Positions 27,983 to 52,427 of a stretch of 64,000 bases of DNA are shown in pieces. The stretch lies in the sequence record OZ346212.1; one strand, written 5' to 3'. A program made the translations under genes and the position numbers. Within the stretch, counting starts at the first letter, position 1; the number at the start of each line of letters is the position of its first letter. Source of the stretch: a phage. The notes under the pieces are model-generated. The model had not been told where the DNA came from. It did no database searches and was given only the letters and a program-made list of their open reading frames with translations.

Positions 27983-28043
27983 TAAGATGTGAGTATAAAG
28001 GGGAGGCACTCCTCCCCACAAAAACTAAGGAGAGCACCAAACG

Positions 28044-47037: not shown

Positions 47038-47088
47038 AAGCACATAAACGGGAAAACTTCCCAGAACACACAAAAGGAGAAAAACACC

Positions 47089-48875: not shown

Positions 48876-48932
48876 TAAACACACAGGCGGGAAAACTTCC
48901 CGCCACTAACAAAGAAAATAGGAGAAAATATC

Positions 48933-49592: not shown

Positions 49593-49646
49593 AAAACTCA
49601 AGGGGGCAAGACGTTTGCCCCAACACAAAACAAAGAGGATAACATC

Positions 49647-50806: not shown

Positions 50807-50838
50807 GGCCCCCGATCCCTGGGGGGCCTAACTTTTTT
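50807..50838 (+). terminator. rho-independent terminator
   Basis: GGCCCCC-gatccct-GGGGGCC followed by TAACTTTTTT. Confidence 0.7.
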
Positions 50839-50861
50839 CAAAAAATTTTTCTTCCGGGGTG

Positions 50862-50890: not shown

Positions 50891-50945
50891 ACAATCAACG
50901 GGGAAACATCCCCACCAACACAAAAACCAGAAAGGAGAAACAAAA

Positions 50946-51194: not shown

Positions 51195-51239
51195 TTAAAC
51201 CCTGTTAAAATACCACGCAGTTAACAAGGAGTAATGATC

Positions 51240-51539
51240 ATGTTTATCCAGGCTAATAATCTTTATTTCTTTGATGGTCAGATCGTAGATGGTGTGGAAG
51301 TGGAGATCACTGGGTGCCCTGGTGGTCAGGCTATGACTTTTCGGAATAATGCCTTTGATGATTCTCATATCGTTATGAGAATGGAAGTTACAAAGCTGGA
51401 CGACAAGAAAACGCTCATTGACTATTCCGTGAAAGATCATCCAGACTACCACATGATCTATGGTGATTTGTGCATTGTTGACCGTGACAAGGTGGGCGGC
51501 ATTGTGATCGCTATTGTGAACGATGTTTTCTCTGTATAG
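51240..51539 (+). CDS. hypothetical protein (99 aa)
   Basis: ATG 51240 with SD AAGGAG. Confidence 0.55.
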   Translation: MFIQANNLYFFDGQIVDGVEVEITGCPGGQAMTFRNNAFDDSHIVMRMEVTKLDDKKTLIDYSVKDHPDYHMIYGDLCIVDRDKVGGIVIAIVNDVFSV

Positions 51540-51597
51540 TTCCGGCAAATGATGCAAAATAAGGCCCCTAGCAGGGCCTACAGCGATATAATCACAT

Positions 51598-51632
51598 AAA
51601 GGCCATGCAACCGCATGGCCTTTATTATTTTG
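51598..51632 (+). terminator. rho-independent terminator
   Basis: AAAGGCCATGC-aacc-GCATGGCCTTT followed by ATTATTTTGG. Confidence 0.8.
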
Positions 51633-51678
51633 GCGTTACAGCGGCCCCAAGGCGCTTAAAAATTTTTTAAAGAAGTAC

Positions 51679-51707
51679 TTGCATCAAGCCCTACAATATG
51701 GATAATA
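51679..51707 (+). promoter_or_regulatory. sigma70-like promoter (TTGCAT-N17-ATAATA)
   Basis: Hexamers at 51679 and 51702. Confidence 0.5.
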
Positions 51708-51717
51708 GGACGTGTCA

Positions 51718-51731
51718 GGGGGGGGGGGGGG
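51718..51731 (+). repeat. homopolymeric G14 tract between promoter and RBS of gene 51771
   Basis: 14 consecutive G, then a, gg, cccc. Confidence 0.9.
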
Positions 51732-51770
51732 AGGCCCCAATCATTAACCGGATAGATAGGAGTTAAAACC

Positions 51771-52055
51771 ATGGCTATTGTTACCGCTGGCGATGTAGTA
51801 GAAATGGAAGCAAAATACTTAAAAGCGGGTATGCATATCCTACGCAACGATCTTGAACTGGTCCTGACAATGGTTGACTATAACCCAGGGCAAGATTATC
51901 CAAGTGTTGACTACTTTTTTGAGTATGTTGATGAAGAGTTGAAAGAGGATGAGGCCTATTGCGGTGAGTTCTGCAACTTCTTTTGTCCTGATGAGGTTGT
52001 AAAGGTTATCTATCAACCTGGCGTAGCTTTCCCGCTGCACGCTATCAATAAATAA
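51771..52055 (+). CDS. hypothetical acidic protein (94 aa)
   Basis: RBS context ATAGGAGTTAAAACCATGGC. Confidence 0.6.
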   Translation: MAIVTAGDVVEMEAKYLKAGMHILRNDLELVLTMVDYNPGQDYPSVDYFFEYVDEELKEDEAYCGEFCNFFCPDEVVKVIYQPGVAFPLHAINK

Positions 52056-52060
52056 ACCTG

Positions 52061-52084
52061 GCGGGGCCGAAAAGGCCCCCGCCT
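52061..52084 (+). terminator. GC-rich hairpin (terminator-like, weak U-tract)
   Basis: GGCGGGGCC-gaaaa-GGCCCCCGCC directly after the stop codon. Confidence 0.45.
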
Positions 52085-52378: not shown

Positions 52379-52427
52379 AATCAAAGGGGGCAACAAGCCC
52401 CACCAACCACAAAGAGGATAAAAAATC

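Follow-up and report, generated by a model that had tools for sequence, protein, structure and literature searches.

Is a run of 14 consecutive G residues in the leader of a small phage gene an evolved switch, an error of sequencing, or a mutational accident? The question is raised by positions 51718 to 51731 (+ strand) of the 64-kb stretch of phage DNA analyzed here (record OZ346212.1; 64,000 nucleotides, hereafter the window). The 14 G are followed by A (51732), GG (51733-34), and CCCC (51735-38), exactly as reported in a preliminary description of the sequence, which also placed the tract between a σ70-like promoter (51679) and the ribosome binding site of a gene encoding a 94-aa protein. 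Reading of the sequence confirmed this location: the tract begins 12 nt 3' of the -10 hexamer, ends 26 nt 5' of the Shine-Dalgarno sequence, and lies outside any ORF. No + strand ORF of at least 40 aa spans it, and the sole overlap is with an unsupported antisense ORF of 63 aa. Elsewhere in the 64 kb, G runs reach at most 6 residues (five cases), C runs also reach at most 6, and the maximum run of any base apart from G14 is 7. Runs of 14 or more G are expected at a frequency of 5 × 10–5 per 64 kb under an independent-base model and of 1.3 × 10–4 under a first-order Markov model.

The window belongs to a Vequintavirus, i.e. an rV5-like E. coli myophage. It matched 133 phage records, essentially all from Vequintavirus, at 91-96% identity, its closest relatives being Vequintaviruses at ~95% identity; none of the matching sequences was identical to it. 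About 20 of the records for this group (MG065635-MG065690, e.g. L002, L010, L012, and L022) are entitled 'UNVERIFIED: Campylobacter phage' and give C. jejuni as the host. Their sequences share 91-96% identity with rV5-like phages of E. coli, and the NCBI taxonomy assigns them to Vequintavirus; the host label looks wrong and probably results from coliphage carry-over.

G14 is located within an extended array of small early genes oriented rightward. Individual σ70-type promoters and terminators are present for most of these genes, in agreement with the 33 σ70-like promoters and 20 terminators predicted in rV5 (PMC3606486). The features surrounding the tract are listed in Table 1. The terminator of the upstream gene, whose homologue is t177 in Table S4 of the rV5 paper (PMC3606486), sets off the 51771 gene as a separate transcription unit. 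The -35 and -10 hexamers were unchanged in 35 of the 35 anchored relatives, and the homologous site in phage Gotham carries a PhagePromoter annotation. From the position of the -10 hexamer, transcription is predicted to start at about 51712-51714. In phage Murica, the homologue of the Shine-Dalgarno region carries an annotation as ribosome-binding site. The hairpin that follows the stop codon probably corresponds to the 3' end of the transcription unit or to an RNA-stability hairpin.

Table 1. Positions of the G14 tract, of the features surrounding it, and of comparable leaders and tracts (window coordinates unless a record handle is given).
Feature	Position	Strand	Description
Intrinsic terminator of the upstream gene	51596..51625	+	Terminator scan: 13-bp stem, then T run; conserved in the alignment of relatives
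A5T6 tract	51658..51668	+	Directly 5' of the -35 hexamer, at the UP-element position; second length-variable homopolymer pair at the promoter
σ70-type promoter	51679..51706	+	-35 TTGCAT 51679-84, 16-nt spacer, -10 GATAAT 51701-06
G14 homopolymer	51718..51731	+	Probable expanded 5' arm of the leader hairpin; apparent allele of the D1-type G6 leader with 8 additional G; pure 8-G gap versus L002 and L013
Leader hairpin or G-quadruplex element (predicted)	51718..51738	+	G tract, AGG loop, CCCC 3' arm 51735-38; RNAfold
Shine-Dalgarno region tAGGAGt	51757..51763	+	7 nt 5' of ATG 51771, 19 nt 3' of the hairpin
Gene for 94-aa acidic protein, pI 4.2	51771..52055	+	phrog_12610, PHROGs family of unknown function; Vequintavirus-specific
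GC-rich hairpin GGCGGGGCC-GAAAA-GGCCCCCGCC	52060..52083	+	Directly 3' of the stop codon of the 94-aa gene; sequence reading; without clear T run
Neighboring leaders with the same layout	28000-28017, 47050-47062, 48889-48901, 49602-49621, 50900-50913, 52386-52401	+	At least 7 including 51718-51738
Variable A/T tracts between terminator and -35 (UP-element position)	51658-51668, 50831-50850; L020:119-128; L011:126-136; L003:1138-1147; L004:3640-3651; L024:20541-20555 (window ~45973)		Vequintaviruses

Homologues of the 94-aa protein were detected by tblastn in 117 phage records, all from Vequintavirus, with at least 80% identity and, in 114 of them, at least 80% coverage. The gene is intact in these 114, which include both genomes containing a long tract, namely the window and phage V18. 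Comparison of the protein with Pfam returned sub-threshold noise only, a sequence search of the PDB revealed no relative, and a single-sequence AlphaFold model was unusable (pLDDT of 39). In phage C7 (L022) and in MG065682 (A112b), the homologue aligned over 60 of the 94 residues, which suggests that the gene may be decaying in this sub-lineage. Two further differences between relatives were observed in the vicinity. The upstream 101-aa gene (51234-51539) consists of one uninterrupted ORF in the window, as it does in Gotham (99 aa). Its counterpart in the rV5 reference (L003:1539-1840) is split into gp173 and gp172, with ORFs of 32 and 68 aa, suggesting a frameshift or a sequencing error in rV5; no record of the 101-aa protein was found in the collections searched. 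In addition, many relatives (L006, L007, L016-L020, L029, and L034) harbor a further gene of 351 bp (116 aa, VOG7213), located 3' of the 101-aa gene and 5' of the terminator and promoter of the 94-aa gene, at a site corresponding to about 51540-51560 of the window. This gene is missing in the window, D1, rV5, and Gotham, and thus forms a presence/absence polymorphism near the tract.

The length of the G run was surveyed in GenBank phage records, in public contigs scanned for the leader pattern, and in assemblies encoding an identical 94-aa protein or an identical neighboring 59-aa protein. Since the pattern scans gave few loci (one in IMG/VR, three in metagenomes, and none in the GTDB genome collection), the survey was built on the GenBank phage records and on exact-protein look-ups. 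It included 46 independent sequences (genomes or contigs); L029 and L038 correspond to one contig, which was counted once. The longest G run at the site was G3 in one case, G4 in one, G5 in 11, G6 in 21, G7 in six, G8 in two, G9 in two, G14 in one, and G17 in one. Thus, G6 was the mode, 38 of the 46 sequences had G5 to G7, and two (G14 in the window and G17 in phage V18) exceeded G9. Two allelic series were present among these sequences. Nine genomes sharing an otherwise identical promoter-plus-leader background of ~100 nt had runs of 5, 5, 6, 7, 7, 8, 8, 9, and 9 G. In seven genomes sharing a second identical background of ~100 nt, the runs comprised 5, 6, 6, 6, 6, 7, and 14 G, the latter in the window. 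In nine other assemblies encoding the identical 94-aa protein, which have the closest leader haplotypes, the runs were G5 to G7. The G17 run of V18 (KY683736; L005, positions 179-195) is part of a different leader haplotype devoid of the CGGTGAGGC loop segment. The leaders of phage C7 and of A112b displayed the shortest G run (GGGAGG) together with a different RBS context. The literature search retrieved neither a description of homopolymer variation at this site nor a Vequintavirus transcriptome.

Alignment of the intergenic regions showed that relatives have a short GC hairpin at the position of the tract, of the form Gn-[A/C]GG-CCCC(C) or Gn-CGGTGAGGCCTCC, and that conservation extends to the promoter, the RBS, and the sequence 3' of the tract. 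The versions of the hairpin were CA-G6-AGG-CCCC in D1, CA-G6-CGG-CCCCC in rV5, AA-G4-CGG-CCCCC in Gotham, and GTC-Gn-CGGTGAGGCCTCC in the second haplotype. The sole difference between the leader of the window and the D1-type leader consisted of 8 additional G. A 4-bp GGGG/CCCC stem was retained in the window by RNAfold, and stems of 4 to 6 bp were found in all relatives, the C run of the 3' arm varying from 4 to 6. The stem persisted despite sequence changes, as GGGG/CCCC, GGGGGC/GCCUCC, GGGGG/CCUCC (navn), or GGAGG/CCUCC (C7), an A-U pair replacing a G-U or G-C pair in C7. Runs of G5 to G7 are just the length that the stem needs. The whole-leader RNA did not fold better than shuffled controls (z-scores of -0.2 to +1.1), and the case for a hairpin is accordingly based on its conserved architecture and not on energetics.

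The preliminary description had noted that neighboring genes carry a defined GC hairpin in their leaders and had proposed that the G tract pairs with the downstream CCCC. Both points held. At least six neighboring leaders displayed the same layout, comprising the -10 hexamer, ~8-11 nt, GGGG-loop-CCCC, a CA-rich spacer (ACCAACACAAA-like), the Shine-Dalgarno sequence, and ATG, and the G tract is homologous to the 5' arm of their hairpins. The GC-hairpin leader may be a phage-wide design for stabilizing the 5' end of mRNAs or enhancing expression. Several of the neighboring hairpins also scored as terminator-like on the minus strand in the terminator scan, because the AT-rich -10 region comes next on that strand. 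A role as minus-strand terminator was excluded for the hairpin of the G14 leader, which is not followed by a U-run on that strand.

Changes in the length of the G run outpaced point substitutions, as expected for replication slippage. The site thus appears to be a slippage hot spot, and the window to contain a +8 allele of a D1-type G6 leader. Stepwise slippage of the DNA polymerase would have expanded the run in a non-coding stretch, in which additional G residues would be tolerated, since pairing with CCCC remains possible for any four residues of the run. Other homopolymers were also variable. The A5T6 tract of the window corresponds to A6T5 in Gotham and rV5, A10T5 in nomine, A6T11 in navn, and A9 in CYGL01. 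The tract 5' of the 50862 promoter is extended to A10-A12 in both rV5 and an IMG/VR contig, and WalterGehring has A15 (L024:20541-20555) versus A7-8 in the window (~45973). Over the Vequintavirus sites listed in Table 1, the lengths ranged from A5 to A15 and from T5 to T11, with differences of up to 8-10 nt; at the UP-element position, these tracts could tune promoter strength. Since other intergenic A/T homopolymers vary too, slippage of non-coding runs is general in this phage group, and this favors a neutral or nearly neutral hot spot. Together, these results indicate that G14 is probably a real allele, lengthened by slippage from a short G run. The short run corresponds to the 5' arm of a GC hairpin conserved close to the promoter, in the leader of a Vequintavirus-specific early gene. 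The site is best regarded as an incidental mutational hot spot carrying a rare long allele, rather than as a maintained switch.

The preliminary description had also raised the possibility of a sequencing or assembly problem. The true tract might be about G6 and have been inflated by a homopolymer miscall (long reads or flow chemistry), by poly-G no-signal calls of two-colour Illumina instruments, or by the assembly. Homopolymers are a classic weak point of several sequencing platforms, G14 is the sole run exceeding 7 in the 64 kb, and the nine assemblies with the identical protein and the closest leader haplotypes have G5 to G7. However, the usual errors of these platforms in homopolymers are of ±1-2 residues or are compressions, and an error of +8 would be atypical. 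The insertion of 8 G is clean, both flanks being identical to those of the G6 allele, from which we infer that reads spanned the tract and that it did not originate at the end of a read or contig. The coding blocks also showed no excess of frameshifting homopolymer indels in comparison to WalterGehring, which is 96% identical: indels were almost all intergenic, the few located in coding blocks were mostly in frame or compensating, and one 6.8-kb block contained three indels, all in an intergenic hairpin. This distribution indicates that the assembly is not generally prone to homopolymer errors. Finally, graded alleles of G7 to G9 were present at the same site in independent genomes from different laboratories. 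The clean insertion, the analysis of coding indels, and the graded alleles weaken the initial caveat, and we consider an artefact to be improbable. The G17 allele of V18 is less secure than the G14 of the window since the loop sequence is also absent; it could have arisen by an independent large expansion with loop loss or reflect failed base calling within G-rich sequence.

If the long allele is real, as we favor, the expansion would be expected to modify the 5' end of the mRNA and thereby expression. The predicted hairpin begins at about +5 relative to the predicted transcription start and ends 19 nt before the Shine-Dalgarno sequence. At ~5 nt from the 5' end of the mRNA and ~19 nt before the Shine-Dalgarno sequence, the normal hairpin would resemble a 5' stabilizer stem-loop. 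The expansion would add ~8 unpaired nt on the 5' side, weakening the protection provided by a 5'-terminal stem-loop. Alternatively, the RNA and the non-template DNA strand of the expanded allele might fold into a G-quadruplex (G4). Computation with ViennaRNA including G-quadruplex energies predicted a 2-tetrad G4 for G14 (-26 versus -9 kcal/mol, the 2-tetrad energies being extrapolated and probably too favorable) and a 3-tetrad G4 for G17. Alleles of up to 8 G were predicted to remain hairpins, and G9 to recruit the adjacent GG into a 2-tetrad G4, again with extrapolated energies. Either structural change would alter the stability of the mRNA, its transcription, or its translation, with a quantitative effect on production of the 94-aa protein. 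Both positive and negative effects are known for G4s in 5' UTRs and for G-rich tracts in the non-template strand (PMC13577120), and the expansion could therefore raise or lower expression.

Two types of elements described in bacteria resemble this leader. The first comprises the 5'-terminal stabilizer stem-loops of E. coli mRNAs of the ompA type (Emory et al., 1992, as summarized in PMC13577120). As in these mRNAs, a small GC stem-loop would be located a few nt from the predicted 5' end and ~20-30 nt before the Shine-Dalgarno sequence, and the layout recurs in the phage at many strongly promoted early genes. Conservation of the structure through sequence change, which is expected for a stabilizer, was observed for the leader hairpins. 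In contrast to the ompA-type elements, G14 would add ~8 unpaired or alternatively folded nt on the 5' side, as estimated from a predicted start site. The second type comprises G-quadruplexes formed by RNA or DNA in the 5' UTRs and non-template strands of bacterial genes (Lee et al., 2020 and 2024, as cited in PMC13577120). The likeness resides in the G-rich non-template strand directly 3' of a promoter and in the G4 predicted for the long alleles. In contrast to bacterial G4s, the tract is a pure homopolymer, and not a G3N1-7 motif, and the number of G residues is sufficient in only 2-4 of the 46 genomes.

The variability of the tract raises the possibility that the poly-G run is a contingency locus or rheostat, kept for frequent, reversible changes in length that would generate heterogeneous expression of an early protein and serve in bet-hedging, e.g. 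against host defenses that sense this protein or are blocked by it. The gene downstream is an early ORFan, conserved and encoding a small acidic protein, and anti-defense or host-takeover proteins are often encoded by genes of this class. A run of 14 G is of a length at which slippage is frequent, isolates differ in the number of G residues, and the position in the leader is associated with a predicted length-dependent change from hairpin to G4. There are also precedents in phages, since SSR contingency loci have been described in T2 agt and T4 rIIA, in addition to many putative loci, mostly in ORFs (PMC12633550), and polyG tracts are present in receptor-binding-protein genes of Fletchervirus (Sorensen et al., 2021, as cited in PMC12633550). 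In bacteria, graded control by a variable repeat of 6-16 G located in a 5' leader has been described for H. pylori (PMC8295292).

Several observations argue against this explanation. SSR contingency loci are recognized as homopolymers of at least ~8 G or C, whose length varies faster than the flanks among close relatives, which occupy a switch position (in an ORF or in the -35/-10 spacer), and which are maintained as long tracts across the lineage. The first two features were found at this site, but not the last two. G14 is neither inside an ORF nor in the -35/-10 spacer, and the runs of 38 of the 46 relatives, at G5 to G7, have lengths associated with low slippage rates, indicating that mutability is not maintained across the lineage. 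The A/T tracts of other intergenic regions vary likewise, which fits neutral slippage. As in the known phage loci, the G14 site is a slippage-variable homopolymer, polymorphic among close relatives, in a virulent phage. It differs from them in being non-coding, between the -10 hexamer and the RBS, instead of producing frameshifts inside an ORF, and in the short, stable alleles kept by most Vequintavirus relatives. The Fletchervirus tracts similarly sit in coding sequence and generate frameshifted protein variants, whereas no + strand ORF of at least 40 aa spans G14. The preprint on T2 and T4 reports few putative intergenic loci, which were outside its study (PMC12633550). Thus, the earlier suggestion of a phase-variation switch stands for the proneness to slippage, lengths of G3 to G17 occurring in the 46 sequences, including in otherwise identical leader backgrounds, but not for the switch itself. 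On present evidence, G14 behaves as a hypermutable SSR and falls short of an evolved contingency locus; a tract kept for its mutability is an unlikely explanation. A more specific version, in which the G-rich arm of the hairpin acts as a heritable and reversible rheostat that alternates between a hairpin (G5-G8) and a G4 or long 5' tail (about G9 and above), thereby generating subclones with different doses of the acidic protein useful against different host defenses, is in our view distinctly unlikely.

The G run might also be a dedicated target for a trans-acting C/U-rich RNA similar to RepG or for a G4- or poly(G)-binding protein, tract length setting the strength of the interaction. The precedent is the tlpB-hp0102 5' leader of H. 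pylori, in which the variable repeat of 6-16 G is the target of the sRNA RepG and mediates graded control (PMC8295292). G14 is likewise a poly-G tract in a predicted 5' leader, with a similar range of lengths among strains, and a G4 is predicted for alleles of about 9 G or more with the flanking GG. However, no intergenic C/U-rich loop candidate was found within the 64-kb window, in which all C/U-rich stretches are located in coding sequence or hairpin stems, without any RepG-like RNA. No Rfam family matched the G14 region or the neighboring leaders, and the tracts of most relatives are too short for a G4. In contrast to the tlpB leader, no cognate C/U-rich sRNA was found in the window for the phage leader; the G run of the phage leader is an arm of a conserved hairpin, and this leader belongs to an early gene of a coliphage replicating in a mismatch repair (MMR)-proficient host. 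Dedicated recognition of the run is for these reasons highly improbable.

There is at present no evidence for a purposeful on/off switch. In the literature searched, every hypermutable phage tract exerts its effect through frameshifts within an ORF. Should the long allele be real and affect expression, it would illustrate how a homopolymer outside coding sequence can tune an early gene of a phage in nature; if the reading as a rheostat were true, the leader would provide the first description, for a virulent phage, of a contingency element that is non-coding and lies in the 5' UTR. For assemblies of rV5-like phages, the G-run site and the A/T tracts located 5' of promoters deserve verification at the level of reads. 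Beyond the tract, the analysis points to a repeated and previously undescribed Vequintavirus leader design, consisting of a strong σ70 promoter, a promoter-proximal GC hairpin, a CA-rich spacer, and an RBS, which may be useful for understanding the stability of early mRNAs and for engineering these therapeutic-candidate phages.
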